DNA of 63,662 nucleotides, filler included, from Globobulimina sp. (lineage: Eukaryota), in NCBI GenBank assembly GCA_003354225.1. It is 31 parts of 31 records of this genome, joined end to end, with 100 filler letters (N's around TTAATTAATTAA, not from the genome) between each part and the next. Parts side by side here need not be neighbours in the genome. Positions count along the whole stretch, not along the records: positions 55,539 to 57,494 come from PIVH01010229.1; 30 more parts are not named here. One strand, written 5' to 3'. Below the pieces are notes generated by a model. It did not search any database and had not been told where the DNA came from. It saw only the letters and a program-made list of their open reading frames with translations. Position 1 is the first letter of the stretch. The number at the start of each line of letters is the position of its first letter. Below, in pieces: positions 4,117 to 57,968 of this stretch. The position numbers were made by a program, and so were the translations under genes.

Positions 4117-4232
4117 GTGGCGCTGCCGCTGCCGTCGACATCAGCGGCCGGCAGACAAGATGGCGCCACTCCTTGCTGAAACATGTAGTCCACGAGGAGG
4201 ATTAGGTCGGAGATATCTGCCGAAGAACCGTT
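4117..4232 (-). other. Bacterial dockerin-type (EF-hand-like) repeat fragment, probably a chimeric join
   Basis: ADISDLILLVDYMFQQGVAPSCLPAADVDGSGS; GC-rich; not part of Vps15. Confidence 0.6.
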
Positions 4233-6074
4233 CGTAAACAAGTCATTTGTTAACGTCGACACAGACATATGTTCATCGACATTATCATTCCCTGTGTTAT
4301 TCTCCATATTATCCAACGTAATCTCCCTATCCTTGTCCCGATAGTCTATGAAATACTTGCCAGTCAGGGCCAAATTGGCCAACTGTCTGGCAATCTCAAT
4401 CCGGATAATTTCCTCCCGCCGGTTATCAACCAGCAACTTAAGTGTTTCTAATATGTAATCTGGGAACAAACGCGTATATTTGCTCGGGACGTGAATGACG
4501 CGGCTCAATATATTGCTCATCACTTCAATGGATTTGGCCACCACAATGCTATGCTCTTCGTGTATTTTCTTCTTATCGTCGTGGATCAACGCGCGAATAT
4601 ACGGCACCAACCGATCTAATCGAATATCGTCGCTCAAATACAAGGCAAAGCCACCGAGAATCTCCAAGGCGACCAACCGATTGCTGGCTTTCCTGCAATT
4701 TCGCAAACAGGAACAGACCACATTGCTCATTAAAATCAACCCATCAAATTCGTCCTCATCGTCGGGGAATATGTGTGGAATGCTGGTATGCTGCACATCG
4801 CCTTCGATGTTGCGCAACATATTCATTTTTTGCTGCTGCTGCTGGCTCTTTATATTGATAACATTTTTCCTTTTTGCCTCCATCTGTCGGCGTAGGTCTT
4901 TTGGAGTCTGTTGTTGCGTGTTTTTGTGCGAAGGAGAGGGCAAATTGCCATTGGTATTATCAGTTTTATTGGTCGGGTGGCTTTGATATGCACTCATATC
5001 TACGATCAAATTGCCATCTTTGTTGATGAAATTGACAGCGTTGCCAGCTGCAGTCATCGTGTTTAGCCGTTCGGTGAGTTCTTGTATGTCTGCGTCATTT
5101 AATAAGCGCGTATCGTTGCCTTTGTAGGCAGCGGACACTACGGAGGCTAATCCAGTGCTGATGCCGGAGGAACGGCGTCGTCTGCGCGATAATGGCGATT
5201 TGGTGCAGGATAAGATTGGTTTAGTGCTAGTTTGCTGTTTTTGCGTTTGTAAAGCTAATCCAATGCCGGATAGTTTGTCCTGTCCTTTGTGTTCATCGTC
5301 ATCGTAATCGGTTAACCGCACAAATTCGTCATTATCTGTGCCAGCTTCATTTTGTCTGTGGTATACATAGAAATATGTTAAATGCAAATAAGTCGTTTTT
5401 CAGAGATATGAATCGCAAAATAGTGCATATTCATAGGTTTATATCACATAAATAATGTTTGTTACAAATAATTTCATCAATAACAATAAATAACAAATTG
5501 AAATCTGATCAGTACAGCTTTTTTATTTATGCTTAACGCCATATTTCAATTAGTTATTTCATGGCAGTTCCCATTGATGAAAAAGCTTTGTATTTTGTCA
5601 ATTATTTCCATCAACAAACACATGAATAGCTGCTATTTGCGGAACTAACGCGTCCTCCAACTGAGTCAGCTCAACAGTTTGCTGCAGTTTCTGTTGTCTC
5701 ATAATAATCTCTAACTGCGGTACTTTGTCGCCAGCCGCACCAATGCCCATTTGCGCATAATTCGGGCTAACCGCTGTTGGCGAAGCCAGCGACATATTGG
5801 ATTTATTGAGCTGGGAACGTTTCGTGTCCTTTCGAAACAACTCAGGTACGCAAGCATTGAAATTGTAGCCTTTGTAATACTTATTGCAGTCCGACGACAC
5901 CATTCGCAAAATGTCCACGTACTTCTTCTGTATGTATTTTATTTTGTGGTCAGCTTCCGAGAACGCCACGTTTAGGAATTTCTTGAATAACTCGTACAAA
6001 TCGTCGAAATAAGCCGGGAATATTTTGCCACGATAAAAGTCCAAATATCTCTGCGGTGCCCACCGTGCTTTGGC
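4233..6074 (-). CDS. VPS15: VPS15/PIK3R4 internal fragment (kinase C-lobe end plus HEAT repeats); intron approx. 5356-5600
   Basis: YLDFYRGKIFPAYF, LALYLSDDIRLDRLVPY-type and LFPDYIL motifs characteristic of Vps15. Confidence 0.8.
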
Positions 6075-20581: not shown

Positions 20582-22537
20582 AGGAACAAAAGGATGTGGA
20601 GCTCCAACAACACAATTATAATTTTCAGATTTTTCCATGATTTCCTCAGCAGTGATGTCTGCAAAGTAAGGATTTTTTTTCATAACCTGGTTGCTCAGCA
20701 AAATATGGAAATAACCCAATTTGTCCGAATAGTTTCTGCATGGATATATATGGACACTTCAACCAATGATAATTGTATGGCATCCAATATATTTTATGAC
20801 AATGCGTTATTTATTCAAAGCGGATCCATTCTATCATGTAAATATCCAAACATTCCTCCCATTATTCACAATCACGATGAAAATATATGTTTCACCACCT
20901 TTGGTACGCCCAATCGTCAATATTCTGAGCCGACTTTATTTATTAATATCCATTCAAATGCCACAGCCATTGCATTAAACACATCGTCGGATTTGATTTT
21001 AGATTATGTCCAATTTATAAATTTTGAGCAAGTACCTATACAAATTACGGGCATAAACAATAGTTTATCCATATTTGATGGCTTACTTATTCGCAATAAC
21101 ACGTCCGTGGACATGTACACATTGCAAGTACCATATTATTGTTCCAGTAAATGCTATGAAATTGTACACAATAATCCGCATCAAATACGACAATTGCGAC
21201 TGGTTTGTGATGTCAATACAAATATCAATGTACAAAATGAAAGTATTAATGACTATATTGACATTGCAGAGTTATCCAAAGATGACACATTGACATCAGT
21301 GTCCTCATGGTTACCACACCATATTCATCTAAGTTCTGATGGATTATATCCAGGGTTATATCCAGGAGGTGTCATACATATAAATTATACCATATTAGAC
21401 CGAGAAGACAACATAGTTTCAGCGTATAATGACTTCTTTCCACAGTTACAAATTGCAATATATTCAGATGCATTATATATTGATCACCGATTATACATCA
21501 CTACAAATGGAAATATCTCCATCTGTGATATGTGCGTCGATGGCTTGCAAGTCACACATATCACCATGGCAGATATCGGCAATACATATGAGATACAAAC
21601 GGATGTATTGGACGATTTATTATTGGTCAACAATGTAAACATAACCATTGTGCACTGCCCACCGCATTATATCGTGTCAAACAAATCGAAATGTATTGAC
21701 CCCTTATTATTGGCACGCAAACCCATTGACATCGAGCTCGGAGTATGGATCGTAGTGATATCTGTGGCCTGTGGCTTAACCATAGCCATTATCATATATT
21801 TTATGTGCAAAGATAACGAAATGAAAAAGAATTTAAATAAACAGAACGATTTGACGCAATATATGCGCCATCCACTGGTGGTGTTGATTGGTATTGGTAT
21901 CTATGAAAATTACCTAAACGGAGCGGATAAGAATGGCGATTTCATTGATGGTTATTTCCCTGATTTAGGCATTGAGGTAGATTTAGAAAACCTATCGCGT
22001 TTATTTCGGTATTTAAATTATAAAATAATTGGCCATGAGACGAAATTGCAATGGACGTATGATGAGATTCTGCGATTTATTCAAGAGTCTGCTAAGGAAG
22101 CATGCGAGTATAAATATGATGGTTTGATTGTTATCATATCCTCGAATGCTGTGAATGATAACATTGTGACTACAGATATGAAAACAATGTCTTTTGAGAG
22201 TATTCATAGATTATATTCGCGGCCATATCCCGAATTGCGCAGTAAACCGAGGTTATTTATATATGATTGTTGTATTATTAATAAACAACGTGTACAGGGA
22301 ACAAATGAGAGACTGGAGATAAATAATGATGTTCTACACTGTGAGGATGAGGATGAATCATTGCCCGATATCGATGCTAATTTGATACAAATTCATACAG
22401 AAAGTGTATCTGTGCAAAGCAAAATGAATCAGATTGATGGCTCGTATCTATTGCATGAGTTTGGTAAACGGATAATATCAAATATGGAACGGCATGAAAA
22501 TGAAAAGTGTCTGGGACAAATATTTGATGATATTAAT
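20582..22537 (+). CDS. Single-pass membrane protein with cytoplasmic caspase-like (peptidase C14) domain; truncated
   Basis: TM LGVWIVVISVACGLTIAIIIYFMC, then PLVVLIGIGIY, DLENLSRLF, YDGLIVIISSNA, KPRLFIYDCC, GSYLLHEF. Confidence 0.75.
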
Positions 22538-24694: not shown

Positions 24695-26620
24695 GGGCAA
24701 GTGATCCGAAACCGAGGTTTTTTAGATGTGGCTACGTGGTACAAAGTGGACGAGTTTGAGTTTCCAAAAGATATAAACAAAGGCGATTATGTGCCGATAA
24801 AACGCATAAATTTGGTCGAGTCGAAGACGGAGCCGCCTCCTTTTTTAACTGAGTCCGAATTAATTGCAAAAATGGAAAAGCACGGCATTGGAACGGATGC
24901 GTCCATACCGCAACATATTGCAAATATTTGTGAGCGGGAATATGCGTCAACTGACCAGAGTACGCGATGTATGAGACCGACACAATTAGGTATGTTTAAC
25001 ATGGCGACATGGTGTTTACTCAAAAAAAAGTTTTTTTACTTGGAAATGTTGACATGTTTTTTGTTGTTTTAGGTTTATTATTAGGCCATGGATACTACAA
25101 AATCGACCCACAATTAGTGTTACCAGAGTTGCGCGCCTATATGGAACGCAATATGACCGCTGTTGCAAAGGGGAAATTGGCGAAAAGCAGTGTGATCAAA
25201 TCTGTATTGGATATATTTTCAGCCAAATTCGATTATTTTGTGCGCAAATTTGAGAAAATGGATACAATGTTCGATCATTTATATAACAATCCAGCCAATT
25301 TACACGGCGGTAAAGTTCTGTGTAAATGTGGCATTTGCAACCGGTCAATGAAGTTGTTTAAGGCCAGAGGGCCGCCAAAGTTATACTGTGCAAAATGTAA
25401 ACAGCAATACGTACTGCCAATAGGTATGACTATGTGCTGCCTTTTCGTGTGTGATTACTGTGATATATATATCCGATGTCCATGTCATGTCAGGCGATAT
25501 CAAAAAAGTGGAAAAGGACTGCCCATTAAGTAAATTTCAAGTGGTTAAATTCTCGAAAGATAACAAAGCGGATTATTCACTAAAAATAACTTACCCGATA
25601 TCGCCATTTGAATTTATGTTTCCGCCGTCCAACGTATACGACCCCGAGAGGCCCAAATTGGGTAAAAAGAAGCGGAAAGGAAGGAAACGGGACAATGATG
25701 GCCGTGGCGGTGGCAACGAGCCGGAAGAATATAAGTATGCCACGGCCGACGGTGAGCTGATTGATGTGGAGGAAATCAATCCGAGTAAACTTAAAAAAGA
25801 GATGGGATGCAATCGGTGCTGGTATGACAAGTGCGATTTCAGTGCGCATACAAATATGGTCAAACCGTGTCCGCGGTGCAACGCTCAGGTAATTTGCTGT
25901 GATTTTCTATAGTTTGTGGCAGAAAAGACGTTTTCTAATGTTTTTTTACAGGGAACGACAAAGTTTTATTTCATATTGGACCCAACGTCGGGACCCCAAA
26001 AATGGAGGATATGCTGTAACAATCCGCGATGTTACAACATGGTGCAAATATCGACGCATGCTCCGACATTTGAAGTGAATGGACGCGGCAATACGTGCGA
26101 GAAATGTGCAGCGAAACTGATTCATATTGAATTCCATAAGGACAATGTACCGGAAATGTTAGTCAAAGATAAGAAAAAGCCCGTCAATGTGGAGTGGAAT
26201 GGATGCGTGTTTTGTGATGATATGTTCAATAAATATGATATGATTGATGAGATCCATGCGGTGTATGGCCAACGTGGTGGATATAGAGGGAGAGGGGGTA
26301 GAGGAGGCAGAGGAGGCAGAGGAGGCAGAGGTGATTACGGAGGCAGAGGGGATTACGGCGGAAGAGGTGATTACCGAGGGAGAGGCAGTGATAATTACAG
26401 AGGAGGTGGGAGAGGTAATGGCCATTATGATAACTACAGAGGTGGGGGAGGTAGAGGGGATAGATCGAGAGGTAGACGACGTGGTGGAGGGAGAGGGAGA
26501 GGCAGAGGGAGGGGGAGAGGTAGAGGGAGAGGTAGAGGAAGGGGCAGAGGAAGAGGAAGAGGTAGGAGCAGAGGACGTAGTCGTAGAGGTAGAGGAGGTT
26601 ATGGTGGTGGCAGATATTGA
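24695..26620 (+). CDS. TOP3B: DNA/RNA topoisomerase III beta, C-terminal half; introns 24990-25072, 25424-25493, 25889-25951
   Basis: LTESELIAKMEKHGIGTDASIP, GYYKIDPQLVLP, KFDYFV, CxxC zinc ribbons and a terminal RGG box. Confidence 0.93.
26275..26615 (+). repeat. Coding RG/RGG low-complexity repeat
   Basis: Purine-rich AGAGGN repeats encoding the RGG box. Confidence 0.9.
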
Positions 26621-26930
26621 ATGAAATGTTTTGAAACATATGCATGACATTNNNNNNNNNNNNNNNNNNNNNNNNNNNNNNNNNNNNNNNNNNNNTTAAT
26701 TAATTAANNNNNNNNNNNNNNNNNNNNNNNNNNNNNNNNNNNNNNNNNNNNTAACAGACAGATCGATATTTAACAATTGCATCATGTACAAAAAATCGCA
26801 GCAAAGTGCAACGACAAAGAAAGAAAAAAAAGCACACACAAAAAAATTATAATATAAAAAGAGAGAAAGAAAAAAGTAAATTAAAGTAAATACAAATTAG
26901 TGGCTATAAATATTATAAATACGAAAATTA

Positions 26931-34978: not shown

Positions 34979-36934
34979 TTGGATCCAATAATGACAATCC
35001 CTTACCAATGTTATCCCGCAAATCCAACCATGCTGAGAACGACACGCCAGTCTCCATGATATCGCATGGCAGCACTGTACGTTCTCGACGATCCAGACGA
35101 AAATCCAGAACCTTAACCGACAAATCCATGAAAAATATAAACGAAAAAAAGCAAAAAGCAAAAACAAACACACAGAATGCACCAAACACTCAAAACACCC
35201 AAAATATAGAAAATAAACAGCAGATTGTATTAAATAAAACTACTAAAAATAGTGTGAGCGACGCGCCAGTGACCCCCGTGACGCCTGAACCATTACAAGG
35301 TATAAAGCAGCGCAGTACTCATACCTCAGAAGCTACCATGGAACTATCGATCCATTTGGATCGATTGGAGCCGGCAGGAATGGATCCAAATGTCGTGAAT
35401 AAGAACTCGCAGACGGATCGCATGTTGGATGAGTTGCAAAATACGCAAGGAATGTCGAGGAAGACGGTGGTGAGCGGCACCGCCAAACATGTAATATTAC
35501 ACGACCATGGCCAGCAACCCGTAAACATTGATCCGCAAATGGGTCAAATGCAAATGCAACGGGGCCACAGCAGCCAGAGTTTAAATAATAGCAACAGTGA
35601 CTATCGCAATTCGCAGCTATCGCAAGGCTCCATGTATTTGGATAACAATTACAACCCGCAATATGTGGAACAAATGAATCCAGCTACGCTCAGTAATCCG
35701 GACTTAATGCGTGGCCTCACACAGTCGAGTATTGGCACCATGGGGACTATGGGCAGTATGGGGACGCCTACACCGACGGATTACAACTCCAATTCCAACA
35801 TACCACAATTGCAACAAAACCCATCCTCTGCTTCAGGTGTGTCGATTATCCTCGTTATAAAAAATATAACTCGATCAGATCTGGAAACGCATTTTAAAAT
35901 GATTTTGTATATATTTGTAATGTAATAAACAAAGGGTTTCCCCAATATCAGCCGCAAAACGTGGCAGACCCATATACGGTGCAAATGAATGGGCAGTATT
36001 ATACCACCGCAGGTGGACCGCCCCCGGGCTATGGGTATAATCCAGGTGTGATCCAAGAGGCGCATCCACAGCAACATTATTATTCAGCCGAAGCCGCCAA
36101 TAACAACAACAATCACCATGCTCCGCACCCACATCCGCATCCACATCCACATAACATAGAAATGAATATGATGATACCGGCAAATGCTTATGCAGCAAAG
36201 GGATATAATGGATACAGCAACGGGGTGCAAGCAGCCTCGCCAGGGATAGAGAGCAATAATAGTTATGATCGATATAGCCAATTCTTGAAGAAATTAATAG
36301 TGGCACCGCAGCAATTTCCCGCGCAACAGCCACAAATGCAAACGGTACAAAGCAATATCAATGATCCACGTTTAATGAACGGCAATGGCGATGAGATGGG
36401 CGATGGTGATGATAATGGCGTTGATGTGAATGGACACCACAACGATGCAGATGATGAGGAGGAAGAGGAGGAAGACGAAGGACAGCAAAATAGGTCGACT
36501 TTTATCGATGATATGGACGATGATGGCATTATTCGTGGCACGCCCATTGAGAATATAACACCGATCGATCGCACGCCCATTGATAATATGACGCCGTTAG
36601 ACGACGAATCGAATGATAGCAGGAACGAAGATATTATGGAACAGCGAAAATCGAGCAAATCATCGCGCGAATATTATACCGGCAGTGCTTCATCAAAGCG
36701 ATCCAAAAAACCAAAAAATAATCGACATCACAATGACAAGAATTATGGCTTACATGCGAGTGGAATTCGTATGGCCACAAATCAACAATATACAGATCAA
36801 TATGCTGCGTATTCTGGCGATTCCGGAGCAGATAAATATGGAAGTATTGGACGACTATGAAGTATACAACAATGCCGTCACGCAAACCGAGGAAGAATCG
36901 CCTGAACCGAAAGAGAGACGGCGTCATGGCCACG
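34979..36934 (+). CDS. Low-complexity, probably disordered Q/N/G/H/D-rich protein; multi-exon, truncated
   Basis: Long open frames 35008-35925 and 35961-36860 with coding-like GC separated by an AT-rich intron-like stretch. Confidence 0.55.
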
Positions 36935-55538: not shown

Positions 55539-56131
55539 CGGCAGAGATAATGTGTTTATTATTTGAATCTGATAAATCGATGCCATTATATATTGAGGAT
55601 ACATTTAATATGTTTAGATTTAGTAAAAAAACATTAAATATAAATTTGCATTCACTTTCAAAATATCCCTCAGTTTTACAAGATTTGATTGTGGAGTCAT
55701 CATATTCTGTGGGTAAGGATAGAGATAATGTGTCATATAAAGAGATTATTGGTGGCACAAATTTATTGAAGAGTAGTTTGATAAATTTATTTCCAAATTT
55801 GGATCATATTGTTATTCAATGTACAGGTAGTGGTGGATATCGTTCATTTCAATTTTCATTATGTGGTTTATTGGATATTTTAAGTGAAACAAGAAAAAGA
55901 AATAAAATAAAATGTTCATTATATGGCGTATGGAAGGATTGTGATGAAGGGAGTGATAGTGATGAAGTGAGTGCAGAAGGGAGTGGAGATAGACGAAGTT
56001 GGTTATATTTTGTATATTCATCAATCTCCTCATCATTAAATATTAAATATCTGAAAATTAAAATATCAATGCAACAAACAAGTGATAGTAAAGGTCGTAG
56101 AAAAGATTTATTAATTTTTGACTGTGTGTGA
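55539..56131 (+). CDS. C-terminal domain of an ART-like family member; 5' truncated
   Basis: YIEDTFNMF..KKTLNINL and LINLFPNL match YLQNIFNHF..QTVISID and LIRLFPKV in the gene at 61707-63662. Confidence 0.5.
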
Positions 56132-56331
56132 TTGTTATTTATGTGTATTAATGGTGTCTGGTCGCTATTTTTTTGTTAAGCGAAATGTTACCTACTTAAT
56201 GTCAACCAGTTCGTTAATTGAGATTTGATATCGGGCTTTATATTATTTATAAGACTCCCCTCGATCATACTGTACAAGAAACGGTAAAATATATAAATTA
56301 TTTTATTATTATTATTATTTATATGCTCAAA

Positions 56332-57492
56332 CTACAACGAGACGTCGTTTAATTGCTGAATCAATGAGAATATTTTCTCTTTGTTGGGATCTTTGTGTTG
56401 TTCTTTTTTGATGGCTTTCATTTGCAGAACAAAGTCGATCATAAAGCGTGAATTTGTATAATTTGTGTGGCCATTTCCATTTTGTCGGATCAAATGAATT
56501 TTTTCGTGATGTAACTGCAACTCAACAATGTGAGCGCCATACAAATGTTTTGACGGATTTCTTTTTTTAATTTTGTATTTTGCACAAATCAAATTCCAAA
56601 ACTTGTGCCAATCCGCAATCTCATTCAAATCATCCAAAGCAATCCCCTTCGATTGCATATCGCGTACAATTTGCGTCCGTTTCCGCTCATATTCGAATTT
56701 CCCGTTTAAACTCCAAGCATTCCAATCCGCGCTGTCATCGAAGATCTGCCGCCATTTATTCTTATTCAACCAGTCCGGATTCAGAAATCTAAGATTTATC
56801 AACAAATCGCGATAACCAAAGATCCCATGATACTGCGGATCGAAGCGATTCTTAAATCGCACAATTTCGAGAATGCGCTGCTCGCCGTACTCGCCAGTTT
56901 GCCATTGGTGTAATTTGAACAAAGCGTCGCGGATCGCCTTCATGTCCGGCAACAGCACGCCTGCTCTGGCCACATCTTTGAGAAAATCGTATTGCAAAAC
57001 CCAGCCATCCTCCACTCCATCGCCGCCACTCTGAGCCGCAGCCACCAGTACCTCCTCGCTGCCAATTCTTTGGATCATTCGCGTGCACATTTTCTCCACG
57101 CAGCGAGGCGCTTTCTTGACGCCCGGATCGTCCTCGTTTATGCCGTGCACCGCCTCCGCCAATCTGCGCGATAATTGCTGCACCGCCACATGTGCATTCT
57201 GGGCAAAACGCCGCAATTCCAGCAAATCTGAATGAATTTGACGGTCACTTTTAATCATTACATAACCGGTACCATCATTGTCATCGTCATGGTCGGCTTT
57301 CTTCTCTTTCTCTTCCTGGCAATCCTCGCTTTTGTCAATTAAATATTGCATTTCGTCCAATTTCTCCACCACTCCGTAGATCGCATCATTGCCGGAATAG
57401 TACGCCAACTCCATCGGTTTGCCAATGATTTGCTTGTTGTACTCCTGCAAATACTGCAACTTGTCGCTGATCAACGAGGCGATGATGGGCTT
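56332..57492 (-). CDS. RelA/SpoT-type nucleotidyltransferase (alarmone synthetase-like) domain protein; 5' truncated
   Basis: GVKKAPRCVEK, LKDVAR, RFKNRF, GYRDLLIN, IVELQL, GHTNY in the canonical synthetase motif order. Confidence 0.75.
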   Translation of the reverse strand, partial: KPIIASLISDKLQYLQEYNKQIIGKPMELAYYSGNDAIYGVVEKLDEMQYLIDKSEDCQEEKEKKADHDDDNDGTGYVMIKSDRQIHSDLLELRRFAQNAHVAVQQLSRRLAEAVHGINEDDPGVKKAPRCVEKMCTRMIQRIGSEEVLVAAAQSGGDGVEDGWVLQYDFLKDVARAGVLLPDMKAIRDALFKLHQWQTGEYGEQRILEIVRFKNRFDPQYHGIFGYRDLLINLRFLNPDWLNKNKWRQIFDDSADWNAWSLNGKFEYERKRTQIVRDMQSKGIALDDLNEIADWHKFWNLICAKYKIKKRNPSKHLYGAHIVELQLHHEKIHLIRQNGNGHTNYTNSRFMIDFVLQMKAIKKEQHKDPNKEKIFSLIQQLNDVSL

Positions 57493-57968
57493 ACNNNNNN
57501 NNNNNNNNNNNNNNNNNNNNNNNNNNNNNNNNNNNNNNTTAATTAATTAANNNNNNNNNNNNNNNNNNNNNNNNNNNNNNNNNNNNNNNNNNNNATGAAT
57601 AAAGAATTGCATGCATTGAGGAAACAATCACTTAAACCAAATAAAATGGAACAAATGGAACCACAGAGTTTATTTCGATATAAGTCATGTAACAAATGGG
57701 ATGTTGAAGATGTAGAGACAGAGAAACATGCGATGCGAGAACAAATTATACATTTAATACAGAGTAACAGCAACAAAAAATCTTCCATTGCCCAAACAAG
57801 TGCACGTGCAACAAAATAATAACACAAGTTGTTGCTTGAACCAACTTGGATGATATTTAAGTATCAATCAATGTTATTAGTTGTATTGTTTTGGCAAGTG
57901 TTTCACTGATAATTTTATTTGATGAAGATAGTTAACTCAGAGCTCAGCAAAGTATTTATATTTTGAAC

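Follow-up and report, generated by a model that had tools for sequence, protein, structure and literature searches.

The window, i.e., the whole stretch of DNA analyzed here (63,662 nucleotides from Globobulimina sp.), consists of 31 short contigs of 1956-1958 bp each, joined by linkers of the form N44-TTAATTAATTAA-N44. A gene resembling those of RelA/SpoT homologues (RSHs) is located on the contig at 55539-57494 (1956 bp). Its open frame is on the minus strand and runs from the contig end at 57494 to a TAG stop, encoding 386 residues (P0001). The 5' end of the gene is missing, cut by the contig end. No introns are found within 56332-57494, and one tblastn segment of the frame covers residues 44-427 of P0002. 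P0002 is the closest homologue (428 amino acids, 55% identity to P0001). It has 43 extra N-terminal residues, and no hydrophobic leader is seen by eye at its N-terminus. The features of the contig and the motifs of the protein are as follows.

56332-57494, minus strand: RSH-like coding sequence, 5'-truncated, with the TAG stop at 56332-56334
57229-57492, minus strand: helical N-terminal extension (P0001 residues 1-88), family-specific and incomplete; model helices at residues 2-23, 41-54, and 56-65
56785-57228, minus strand: RSH-type synthetase core, part 1 (residues 89-236), with GVKKAPRCVEK, KDVAR (D173), KNRF, and GYRD (Y227)
57091-57123, minus strand: GVKKAPRCVEK, residues 124-134
56965-56979, minus strand: KDVAR, residues 172-176
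56842-56853, minus strand: KNRF, residues 214-217
56806-56817, minus strand: GYRD, residues 226-229
56548-56784, minus strand: Trp-rich insert (about residues 237-315, 79 amino acids) between the GYRD and ELQ strands
56335-56547, minus strand: RSH-type synthetase core, part 2 (residues 316-386), with ELQ (E324, Q326), an HH pair, GHTNY (H342, Y345), RF..DF, and C-terminal helices
56515-56526, minus strand: VELQ, residues 323-326
56458-56472, minus strand: GHTNY, residues 341-345
56132-56331, no strand: AT-rich 200-bp spacer between the convergent 3' ends, with an (ATA)n run at about 56292-56329
55550-56131, plus strand: convergent ORF, given as context only, functional link not shown

All motifs read from this frame in a preliminary description of the locus (GVKKAPRCVEK, KDVAR, KNRF, GYRD, VELQ, and H..Y) are there, in that order and close to where they had been placed. 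The order is not due to chance, since P0002 matches P0001 with an E of 2.6e-133 and 21 proteins are found at E <= 0.001 (14 of them at E <= 1e-10) in a search of representative proteins. The N-terminal extension includes a PII..L.SD...Y stretch common to P0002, P0005, P0010, P0012, P0024, and P0027.

The convergent gene is also found, as the plus-strand ORF at 55550-56131. It corresponds to the last 186 or so residues of a protein family about 498 amino acids long (P0034), for which there is no match in Pfam or among PDB sequences. By eye, P0034 has an R...STS...E-x-E-like pattern, which would fit the label "ART-type" given to this gene earlier. The neighbor family is very high-copy: its depth is hundreds to thousands, compared with about 5 for the RSH-like gene in run X1, and many loose ends are found at 56134-56146. 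Because of this high copy number the adjacency of the two genes is probably incidental and lends little weight to a functional linkage.

Assembly and eukaryotic origin

The AT-rich 3' end mentioned in the preliminary description is seen as a difference in local GC content, which is 0.46-0.55 in the gene (across 56650-57250) and about 0.30 in the flanks. Such a shift, on a contig of merely 1956 bp, would fit a bacterial contaminant or a chimera, in which a GC-richer bacterial fragment (56600-57494) is joined to an AT-rich 3' end from the host. However, contigs from other runs cross 56600 unbroken. Record 15 of X3 spans 56265-56783, record 4 of X1 spans 56163-56704, and record 24 of X6 spans 56330-57494 in one piece. 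Past the contig end, sequence continues in run contigs for a further 1047 nt (X6) and 1475 nt (X3). Since contigs from independent runs span the GC shift, the RSH-like gene is no bacterial chimera. The gene is covered by contigs from three studies, and in one covering contig at 92% identity the differences are substitutions and frame-keeping indels only. The GC3 of the gene (0.55) is similar to that of the unquestionably eukaryotic VPS15-like gene of the window (0.53), and kinesin, HECT, VPS15-like, and YEATS proteins are among those encoded elsewhere in the window. Against a contaminant it also counts that P0002 is collinear over 99% of P0001, that the homologues with an organism name are all foraminiferal, transcriptome-derived entries among them, and that a pattern search combined with tblastn yields no relative from 185,579 prokaryote species genomes. 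For practical purposes, the contaminant or chimera reading is refuted.

Among the records listed, none bridges 56146-56163. To the left of 56265, the X3 sequence departs from that of the window. For these two reasons, the adjacency of the gene and its neighbor is unconfirmed outside the window's own assembly.

Synthetase fold

The central claim of the preliminary description, a RelA/SpoT-type synthetase core with a large insertion on a eukaryotic contig, is borne out by fold comparison, by a controlled profile-profile alignment, and by weak sequence-profile matches. The AlphaFold2 model of P0001 (pLDDT 77, pTM 0.74) has its best structural matches among small alarmone synthetases (SASs). When compared with PDB by Foldseek, the top matches listed are all SASs, CapRel, or Tas1, with probabilities of 0.9-0.99 and E of only about 1e-2. 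By VIA-align, ranks 1-14 are all SASs, Tas1, or CapRel (Z 8.1-11.0). The best match is RelQ (5ded_E, Z 11.0, rmsd 2.4 over 143 residues); Tas1 (6ox6) has Z 10.3, RelP 9.8, and CapRel 9.4-9.5, while long RSHs are at Z 6.4-7.5. Because rows within 1 Z unit are ties, relatives that make nucleotides and those that modify tRNA are inseparable by these scores. The structural alignments of P0001 start at model residue 88-89.

A paralogue with no insert, P0004 (model pLDDT 69.9), matches 6fgx_A with a Foldseek E of 1.2e-7 (SAS2/SAS1 matches are at about 1e-7). Its model has 59 Foldseek matches at E <= 0.001, and among the matches listed all are RSHs. In a viral library it matches RelA/SpoT-like domains of phage polyvalent proteins, a Tas1-like protein, and a relA/spot nucleotidyltransferase of Fadolivirus.

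Several other nucleotidyltransferases share the ancient core of RSHs, and the structural list includes GLD-2, Pol mu, TdT, Cid1, poly(A) polymerase, and MiD51. It is nevertheless very improbable that P0001 is such an enzyme (a terminal nucleotidyltransferase, a poly(A)/poly(U) polymerase, or a cGAS/OAS/MiD51-like protein) rather than an RSH. These proteins have Z of 3.6-5.5 (GLD-2, Pol mu, TdT, and Cid1 at most 5.5), compared with 9.3-11.0 for SASs. The top Foldseek matches of both P0001 and P0004 are exclusively RSHs, the sequence-profile and profile-profile matches are to RSHs only, and the order of motifs, including GY and E-x-Q, is that of RSHs. The fold superposes better on solved RSH synthetases than on other nucleotidyltransferases. 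As modeled, P0001 carries the RSH synthetase fold together with the RSH order of motifs.

Profile and sequence searches

When 12 domains of the family are aligned with six bacterial RSHs by hhalign, the probability is 87.5%, with an E of 3.6e-6 and a score of 46.9. None of 30 column-shuffled controls scores above 19.4, which is the maximum among them, and a reversed control reaches 13.0. In the extended alignment, ELQLHH stands opposite EIQIRT. A family profile (A1) searched against PDB sequences has a single match at E <= 10, which is RelP/YwaC (6fgk_A, E 0.0068). No RSH is found among PDB sequences by profile A3, which includes the long N-termini, or by A4, which has the short members only.

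In Pfam, P0001 has no RelA_SpoT match even at E <= 10, and its only match is a chance-level one to H-NS (E 0.27). None of 19 family members reaches the gathering score of RelA_SpoT (PF04607, 27 bits), which is a practical detection criterion, neither structural nor catalytic. Sub-threshold matches are found in two of the 19, P0004 and P0007 (18.4-18.5 bits, E about 0.003). Scans of 13 family members with PADLOC and NCBIfam give no RSH match, and PADLOC gives no toxSAS. HD, TGS, and ACT domains have no match in P0001 or in any homologue scanned, and P0001 ends 60 residues past the core. A phmmer match of P0001 to GroEL in PDB (E about 0.5) is taken as chance. For P0004, 14 of 30 protein-language-model neighbors are in clusters with PF04607. 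The language-model neighbors of the family are in unnamed clusters, commonest in diatoms, and serve as leads only.

Active-site residues

In RSHs, the basic motif R-x-K-x-x-x-S-x-x-x-K binds the phosphates of ATP. In bacterial RSHs, the Asp of D-x-x-G-x-R coordinates Mg2+, and E-x-Q is catalytic. D173 in KDVAR of P0001 aligns with the Asp of HDIAGVR or YDIAGLR, and this Asp hardly varies within the family. G226 and Y227 pair with GY of GYRS; neither of the two varies in the family, and the same holds for KN of KNRF. Further downstream, E324, Q326, H328, R336, G341, H342, N344, Y345, R349, F350, D353, and F354 are invariant across 19 sequences. By alignment, D173 corresponds to the Mg-binding Asp, Y227 to the acceptor-stacking Tyr, and E324/Q326 to the catalytic E-x-Q, and all of them are conserved. 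The equivalent Asp (D90) and acceptor-stacking Tyr (Y128) are described as essential in FaRel2 and highly conserved among SASs in the available text on that enzyme (bioRxiv 10.1101/2021.04.30.441581).

Other canonical residues are changed. In the basic motif, G-V-K-K-x-x-R-x-x-E-K aligns with R-V-K-S-F-E-S-I-V-N-K, with the two Lys retained, Gly in place of the first Arg (of R-x-K), and Arg in place of Ser. After the Asp, the family reads D-x-x-R-x-G and not D-x-x-G-x-R, i.e., Gly and Arg are swapped. K-D-Y-I has become K-N-R-F, E-I-Q-I-R-T has become E-L-Q-L-H-H, and the His of GY.S.H is absent. With several motif residues changed, the specificity for donor or acceptor, or the activity itself, could differ from that of every RSH studied, or the activity could be lost.

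Trp-rich insert

The large insertion between GYRD and ELQ is real, and its length is placed here at about 79 amino acids (residues 237-315) instead of the earlier estimate of about 85. It holds six of the eight Trp of P0001 and has a net charge of +5. The insert is predicted to be helical with low to moderate confidence (AlphaFold2 pLDDT blocks 45-76), and it is kept in P0002 and P0003. The spacing from GYRD to ELQ, obtained by regular expression on 24 rows (mis-hits in P0008 and P0025 excluded), is 94 residues in P0001 and 99 in P0002. It is 16-37 in 17 relatives with no insert, and 162-163 in three relatives with a discoidin insert. In one paralogous subfamily, a discoidin (F5/8 type C) domain occupies the equivalent insertion site. 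A few Trp/Phe of the Trp-rich insert line up with the discoidin insert of P0009 and P0013 in a MAFFT alignment. It is not claimed that the insert is a degraded discoidin domain, because F5_F8_type_C has no match in P0001 at E <= 10 and the model is helical.

Homologues and domain architecture

All relatives with an organism name are foraminiferal: Reticulomyxa, Bolivina, Nonionella, and Elphidium. Those of Reticulomyxa filosa are ETO36721, ETO27900, and ETO17352. Those of the other three genera are EukProt entries, one of them with an MMETSP transcriptome label. Members of the family are currently labeled "hypothetical protein". The homologues fall into five well-supported subfamilies.

Some paralogues are fused to repeats. 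P0008 has TPR and WD40, with the synthetase domain C-terminal to the repeats, while P0009 and P0013 have WD40 and F5/8 type C by Pfam. In 12 proteins scanned with Pfam, long paralogues included, only TPR, WD40-type propellers, F5/8 type C, and a weak Sad1_UNC are found, and none of the 12 has NACHT or NB-ARC (the N-terminus of P0001 is missing). As the long paralogues have no NACHT/NB-ARC, an analogy with immune receptors rests on the repeats alone.

No relative of P0001 is found in metagenome contigs, and none by alignment A5 in prokaryote, metagenome, and viral contigs. These DNA-locus searches rely on matching a handful of exact peptide patterns, and their negative outcome therefore says little about absence. 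No literature was found that joins RelA/SpoT with Reticulomyxa or Rhizaria, or ppGpp with foraminifera, and none on a eukaryotic alarmone synthetase with WD40.

Proposed function

We read P0001 as the last 386 residues of a protein of foraminiferal type that is built around a very divergent RSH synthetase of SAS-like shape, and which would be an active, regulated effector. We give this reading a probability of about 0.62. Judging from the conserved residues, the core would be an active ATP-dependent pyrophosphokinase, transferring the beta,gamma-pyrophosphate of ATP to the 3'-OH of an acceptor. A purine nucleotide, giving a (p)ppGpp- or (p)ppApp-like product, is a somewhat likelier acceptor than an RNA 3' end. 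The Trp-rich insert would sit in the hairpin between the GY and E-x-Q strands, beside the predicted acceptor site. In that position its most likely role is to gate or specify the acceptor, or to take up a regulatory signal. As the domain is C-terminal to TPR/WD40 in several paralogues and at least five old subfamilies exist, the family probably provides regulated effectors or signal generators for the response to stress or to non-self.

One alternative places the acceptor at the 3' end of RNA. The protein would then be a toxin-like pyrophosphokinase of the tRNA CCA end, and a trigger sensed by the insert or the repeats would shut down translation, resulting in abortive-infection-like immunity or programmed cell death. 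The Tyr and Asp needed for tRNA modification by FaRel2, as its available text describes them, are conserved, and the positively charged insert, the many old paralogues, and the fusions to WD40, TPR, and discoidin modules are consistent with such a role. CapRel is among the top structural matches, tied with housekeeping SASs, but FaRel2 itself is a poor match (Z 5.0-5.5). In the available text of the respective papers, CapRel combines sensor and effector in one protein and is switched on by a phage capsid protein (PMC9712102), and RelA_SpoT domains serve as effectors of fungal NLRs (PMC4986451). Against this, the long forms among the 12 proteins scanned have no NACHT/NB-ARC, and the sequence holds nothing that discriminates an RNA from a nucleotide acceptor. 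The toxin-like alternative is possible but has a much lower probability than the preferred reading. Such a protein would be a eukaryotic analogue of the toxic SASs CapRel, FaRel2, and PhRel2.

It is less likely still that the RSH fold is catalytically dead or repurposed, e.g., as a nucleotide-binding or scaffolding module with no pyrophosphokinase activity. The replacement of Arg by Gly in motif 1, the Gly/Arg swap after the Asp, the change of IRT to LHH, the sub-threshold Pfam matches, and the large insertion within the catalytic hairpin would all fit such a loss. However, the basic residues K126, K127, R130, and K134 remain at the phosphate-binding motif, and in subfamilies whose identity is otherwise only 28-57%, the Asp, the Tyr of GY, and E-x-Q show little or no variation. 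Such conservation of indispensable residues amid low identity looks like that of an active site under selection. Far behind come a different nucleotidyltransferase-fold enzyme and, last, bacterial contamination, for the reasons given above.

A bolder extension of the preferred reading is offered tentatively, and we consider it rather unlikely in its full form. Foraminifera may have evolved an expanded set of sensor-coupled RSH pyrophosphokinases, in which a trigger (virus, symbiont, or stress) would cause a flood of a (p)ppApp- or (p)ppGpp-like nucleotide or pyrophosphorylation of tRNA 3' ends, with no NACHT/NB-ARC involved. The bacterial-type core would be wired in two ways: behind WD40/TPR repeats, and by ligand-binding modules placed in the catalytic hairpin. 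One subfamily would have discoidin in this role, and that of P0001 the Trp-rich helical module. Such a system would parallel, in a eukaryote, CapRel-type abortive infection and the RelA_SpoT effectors of fungal NLRs.

Comparison with known systems

RSH enzymes are central to bacterial stress signaling and are also used as toxins. In eukaryotes they are known mainly from plastids, as MESH1 hydrolases, as a small number of short synthetases that are unplaced, and as effector domains of fungal NLRs that have yet to be studied. Foraminifera are ecologically dominant protists of marine and freshwater environments.

The best structural matches of P0001 are RelQ/SAS1 and RelP/SAS2 of Firmicutes (5ded, 5dec, 6ex0, 6ewz, 6fgk, and 6fgx; Z 9.7-11.0). 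They have in common the order of motifs, the Mg-binding Asp, the Tyr of GY, and E-x-Q, and both are synthetase-only with no HD hydrolase. The identity, however, is 11-16%, too low for Pfam, and P0001 has DxxRxG, KNRF, and ELQLHH. The foraminiferal protein also adds a helical N-terminal extension of about 130 amino acids and the 79-amino-acid insert in the GY/ExQ hairpin, and it is found in a eukaryotic host. The second-best match is Tas1 of Pseudomonas aeruginosa (rmsd 3.3 over 157 residues, 15% identity), a (p)ppApp synthetase that is a toxin-type effector of type VI secretion and likewise a synthetase-only RSH. The foraminiferal gene has no secretion-system context, and Tas1 has no insert.

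Another group is that of the tRNA-pyrophosphorylating toxic SASs CapRel, FaRel2, and PhRel2 (7ztb, 9erv, and 8pu4), whose essential Asp and Tyr are conserved here. The sensor-plus-effector logic of CapRel resembles that of foraminiferal proteins with N-terminal repeats. Unlike these SASs, the foraminiferal proteins have no recognizable antitoxin or pseudo-zinc-finger domain, their domain is C-terminal to eukaryotic WD40/TPR repeats, and the match to FaRel2 is weak.

The RelA_SpoT effectors of fungal NLRs are likewise RSH-type domains of a non-plastid eukaryotic kind that occur with WD40 or TPR, as described in the available text of Dyrka et al. 2014 (PMC4986451). There the domain is N-terminal, detectable by PF04607, and followed by NACHT/NB-ARC, whereas the foraminiferal domain is C-terminal, escapes Pfam, and has no NACHT/NB-ARC in any of the 12 proteins scanned. 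Divergent unplaced SASs (divRel) of Dictyostelium, Aspergillus, Gibberella, and diatoms are reported as synthetase-only and thought to be bacterial in origin (Atkinson et al. 2011, PMC3153485). The foraminiferal family resembles them as one more case of synthetase-only RSHs scattered among eukaryotes. It differs in that no sequence-level link is found and that the insert and the repeat fusions are absent from the available description of divRel, a survey text in which Rhizaria are not mentioned. According to the same text (PMC3153485), plant RSH1-4 and CRSH are long and plastid-targeted with HD, TGS, or EF-hand, and metazoan MESH1 is hydrolase-only. These belong to the same superfamily, but the foraminiferal protein has no match to HD or TGS.

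Compared with these systems, the family adds a whole eukaryotic lineage, Foraminifera, to the distribution of RSHs, a lineage whose members escape Pfam. It also offers a new structural arrangement, in which accessory domains are predicted to be inserted in the hairpin beside the acceptor site. The hairpin inserts and repeat fusions make regulation and substrate choice of RSHs directly testable. Should the enzymes prove active, a free-living eukaryote would be using alarmone-like nucleotides or tRNA pyrophosphorylation outside plastids.

An RSH-like gene at a contig end

The window consists of 31 contigs of 1956-1958 bp (63,662 bases in all), ordered by length and joined by linkers N44-TTAATTAATTAA-N44, so any gene neighbourhood seen across a linker is artificial. 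Contigs other than the one discussed here code for kinesin, HECT, VPS15-like, YEATS, exostosin and caspase-domain proteins in long frames that lack introns, with a GC content of ~33%, implying that the source is an AT-rich eukaryote. The caspase frame (20582-22537, plus strand; 652 residues) fills its whole contig, with ~460 residues lacking a Pfam match ahead of the Peptidase_C14 domain (E 5.6e-8).

The contig at 55539-57494 carries an open frame for a RelA/SpoT homologue (RSH)-like protein, P0001. The motifs by which it was originally recognized were all found, in the order described and at most ~20 bases from where they had been placed:

56332-57494, minus strand: RSH-like open frame P0001, from the contig end at 57494 to the TAG stop at 56332-56334, 386 residues
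57091-57123, minus strand: GVKKAPRCVEK motif of P0001
56965-56979, minus strand: KDVAR motif of P0001
56842-56853, minus strand: KNRF motif of P0001
56806-56817, minus strand: GYRD motif of P0001
56515-56526, minus strand: VELQ motif of P0001
56458-56472, minus strand: GHTNY motif of P0001

The closest homologue, P0002 (428 aa; E 2.6e-133; 55% identity across 99% of P0001), extends 43 residues further at the N-terminus; the gene is therefore incomplete in the window. Upstream of 57494, contigs from two sequencing runs continue for 1475 nt (X3) and 1047 nt (X6), indicating that this gene, or a neighbouring one, reaches well past the window. The complete protein may be longer than P0002.

The convergent gene reported earlier on the same contig is present as a plus-strand ORF (55550-56131), the only other feature there; an Rfam scan of the contig found no family. 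The ORF corresponds to the C-terminal ~186 residues of a 498-aa protein, P0034 (55% identity), whose family has no match in Pfam or among PDB sequences. On inspection by eye, P0034 shows in its upstream half an Arg...STS...E-x-E-like pattern, which we take to be reminiscent of ADP-ribosyltransferases. Summed contig depth at 55539-56146 is hundreds to thousands in all four runs, versus ~5-200 for the RSH-like gene, and many differing contig continuations begin at 56134-56146. This part of the contig therefore belongs to a very high-copy family or repeat. The adjacency of the two genes, which X3 contigs did not confirm, is probably incidental.

Composition and origin of the gene

GC content is 0.46-0.55 across 56650-57250 and drops to ~0.30 at the 3' end, much as first described, and the GC-richer part had been considered a possible bacterial chimera. 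Contigs from three studies cover the gene, and contigs of other runs cross 56600 without a break. In X1, five records tile 56163-57468 at a depth of ~4-7, four of them free of differences and one with three. X3 belongs to a different study and has a different organism code; its record 15 corresponds to 56265-56783 and its record 16 to 56754-57494 before running on past the contig end. In X6, a single 2259-nt contig of ~92% identity spans 56330-57494 and stops 56 nt past the stop codon; its indels (3 nt at 57021, 3 nt at 57265 and three single bases in 57269-57273) keep the frame throughout. Several samples therefore have the AT-rich 3' end and the GC-richer body together as one gene, and a chimera at the GC shift is, for practical purposes, ruled out by the X3 and X6 contigs that cross it. 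Coding constraint appears to act on the gene's evolution.

The gene's GC3 of 0.55 exceeds that of every other frame measured in the window, although the VPS15-like gene all but equals it (0.53); the other 16 frames have 0.17-0.48. Three contigs (4117-6074, 24695-26651 and 34979-36934) have a GC content of 0.43-0.45, versus 0.28-0.37 in the rest, and the VPS15-like gene sits on one of them. On the other two, the ORFs at 34981-35925, 35898-36860 and 25913-26620 gave no Pfam match among those scanned. The source genome seems compositionally heterogeneous.

Assignment to the RSH superfamily

Direct searches with P0001 did not recover RSHs: a Pfam scan gave no RelA_SpoT (PF04607) match even at E <= 10, and phmmer against PDB sequences returned GroEL alone, at chance level. 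A search of a representative library of 1.84 billion proteins gave 21 with E <= 0.001, of which 14 had E <= 1e-10. None of the 19 aligned family members reaches the PF04607 threshold; two short members, P0004 and P0007, have sub-threshold matches (18.4-18.5 bits, cut-off 27) covering 105 of the 113 model positions. The 19-sequence family profile had a single match among PDB sequences at E <= 10, the RelP/YwaC small alarmone synthetase (SAS) 6fgk_A (E 0.0068), in which GvKKxxRxxEK is aligned with RVKSFESIVNK, lKDlaRaG with HDIAGVR, and KNRF...GYRD with KDYI...GYRS. Profile A3, in which long N-termini dilute the signal, and profile A4, built from short members only, found no RSH among PDB sequences, which shows the weakness of the family's sequence signal. 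An hhalign comparison of 12 family domains with the synthetase regions of six bacterial RSHs (RelA and SpoT from E. coli, and four Firmicute SASs from 'phage'-collection records) gave a probability of 87.5% (E 3.6e-6, score 46.9); the highest score among 30 column shuffles was 19.4, and reversing the alignment gave 13.0. When insert-free members were aligned under a permissive setting, the match covered the whole domain and placed ELQLHH opposite EIQIRT. Sequence profiles link the family, taken as a whole, to RSHs, although direct family searches of P0001 fail. As a lead rather than a test, 14 of 30 language-model neighbours of P0004 are in clusters with PF04607.

The AlphaFold2 model of P0001, built from the 19-sequence alignment, has a mean pLDDT of 77 and a pTM of 0.74 (core strands and helices above 85-90). 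Foldseek E-values against PDB were weak (~1e-2), yet every top match listed was an RSH: smu.1046c, RelQ/SAS1, RelP/SAS2, an exported Streptomyces SAS, 2be3, CapRel and Tas1, with long RSHs after these. With VIA-align, P0001 matched RelQ (5ded_E) at Z 11.0 (rmsd 2.4 over 143 residues), Tas1 at 10.3, RelP at 9.8, CapRel at 9.4-9.5, long RSHs at 6.4-7.5 and FaRel2 at 5.0-5.5. Ranks 1-14 are all SAS-type, and the drop to unrelated nucleotidyltransferases (GLD-2, Pol mu, TdT, Cid1, poly(A) polymerase and MiD51, Z <= 5.5) is ~4 Z units. The insert-free P0004 (model pLDDT 69.9) matched SAS2 at E 1.2e-7 and had 59 Foldseek matches at E <= 0.001, all RSHs among the matches listed. Among viral models it matched RelA/SpoT-like domains of phage polyvalent proteins, a Tas1-like protein and a giant-virus relA/spot nucleotidyltransferase. 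Taking profiles and predicted structures together, we regard the RSH fold assignment as secure; the RelA/SpoT-type synthetase core proposed in the preliminary description is upheld by the SAS-best fold matches, the hhalign score against shuffles and the 6fgk_A match.

Active site

Columns E324, Q326, H328, R336, G341, H342, N344, Y345, R349, F350, D353 and F354 do not vary among 19 sequences that share 28-57% identity with P0001. Subsets that cover the domain's first half show no variation, or almost none, in the Gly-Tyr of GYRD, the K-N of KNRF, the Arg preceding KNRF, and the Asp and Arg of KD..R. In bacterial SASs, the aligned Asp is described as coordinating Mg2+ and the aligned Tyr as stacking on the acceptor base; D90 and Y128 of FaRel2 are essential and described as highly conserved in SASs (bioRxiv 10.1101/2021.04.30.441581, in part). 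Four changes are family-wide: Gly replaces the first Arg of R-x-K, the Gly and Arg after Asp are exchanged (D-x-x-R-x-G), K-N-R-F stands in place of K-D-Y-I, and L-H-H in place of I-R-T after E-x-Q. From these residues, we take the catalytic centre to be conserved but re-tooled, and probably active.

A domain-insertion site in the catalytic hairpin

The hairpin joining the GY strand and the E-x-Q strand of RSHs adjoins the acceptor site and differs between on and off states. A large insert between GYRD and ELQ had been noted in P0001; it is present at this hairpin, with a length of ~79 aa (about residues 237-315) rather than ~85. The GYRD-to-ELQ gap, counted by regular expression over 24 rows (P0008 and P0025 excluded for an upstream GYKD mis-hit), is 94 residues in P0001, 99 in P0002, 16-37 in 17 insert-free relatives and 162-163 in three relatives whose insert is a discoidin domain. 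The P0001 insert holds six of the protein's eight Trp, has a net charge of +5 and is predicted to be helical at low to moderate confidence (pLDDT 45-76). Its Trp-rich sequence is kept in P0002 and a fragment, P0003, including W..IF.D, AW, FEYE.KR and W..FW.

A complete F5/8 type C (discoidin) domain (Pfam E 1e-15 to 1e-17; residues 812-918 of P0009) occupies the same hairpin in a separate, strongly supported subfamily from Nonionella, Elphidium and a metagenome. That two subfamilies carry an accessory domain in one and the same hairpin speaks for a role of this site in controlling or directing the reaction on its acceptor side. In the long relatives P0009 and P0013, which lie outside the window, the discoidin insert is at ~800-940 and ~1000-1140, inside the RSH-like domain; both also have WD40 propellers and more discoidin-like or Sad1_UNC-like regions upstream.

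Distribution and architecture of the family

All organism names on the homologues are foraminiferal:

Reticulomyxa filosa: ETO36721, ETO27900 and ETO17352, labelled 'hypothetical protein'
Bolivina argentea: family members among EukProt entries
Nonionella stella: two paralogues among EukProt entries
Elphidium margaritaceum: a EukProt entry with an MMETSP transcriptome label

The remaining homologues are unnamed metagenome or metatranscriptome proteins, and a profile-seeded search gave 12 proteins, all more of the same kind. Pattern searches of prokaryote species genomes, JGI metagenome contigs and IMG/VR found no relative, which is weak negative evidence. A maximum-likelihood tree of 19 domain sequences has five subfamilies (support 99-100 each) in unresolved deep order, and P0001 pairs with P0002. 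All members share a helical extension of ~130 residues ahead of the core. In long members the RSH-like domain is C-terminal, following TPR and WD40-type propellers in P0008 and WD40 and discoidin-like regions in P0009 and P0013. Neither NACHT nor NB-ARC was found in 12 proteins scanned with Pfam.

Proposed function and comparison with known systems

P0001 would be a SAS-type ATP-dependent pyrophosphokinase, and the inserted module would control the acceptor side of its reaction. We put the probability that it is an active enzyme at roughly 0.85. If so, there is an even chance that the acceptor is a nucleotide and the product alarmone-like; an RNA 3' end is a distinctly less probable acceptor, and the remaining probability falls to an acceptor of some other kind. 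Structural scores cannot tell these options apart, since RelQ, Tas1, RelP and CapRel are tied within ~1.5 Z units.

Eukaryotic RSHs, according to Atkinson et al. 2011 (PMC3153485, in part), are plant plastid RSHs, MESH1 and 'divRel' SASs scattered among Dictyostelium, Aspergillus, Gibberella and diatoms; the survey makes no mention of Rhizaria. A full-text literature search returned nothing tying RSH, ppGpp or alarmone synthetases to Reticulomyxa, foraminifera, Rhizaria or WD40 fusions, and supplementary tables of RSH surveys could list such sequences as unplaced. The P0001 family has a synthetase domain of the RSH superfamily that belongs to none of the named subfamilies and stays under the Pfam threshold. 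It also has the re-tooled motif set, the domain-insertion site in the catalytic hairpin and the eukaryotic repeat fusions. Given these fusions and the paralogue expansion, we lean towards a regulated effector or alarm role over a housekeeping one. CapRel, described as a fused sensor-toxSAS (PMC9712102, in part), offers one analogy for such a role in the foraminiferal family, and the RelA_SpoT effectors of fungal NLRs (PMC4986451, in part) offer a second.
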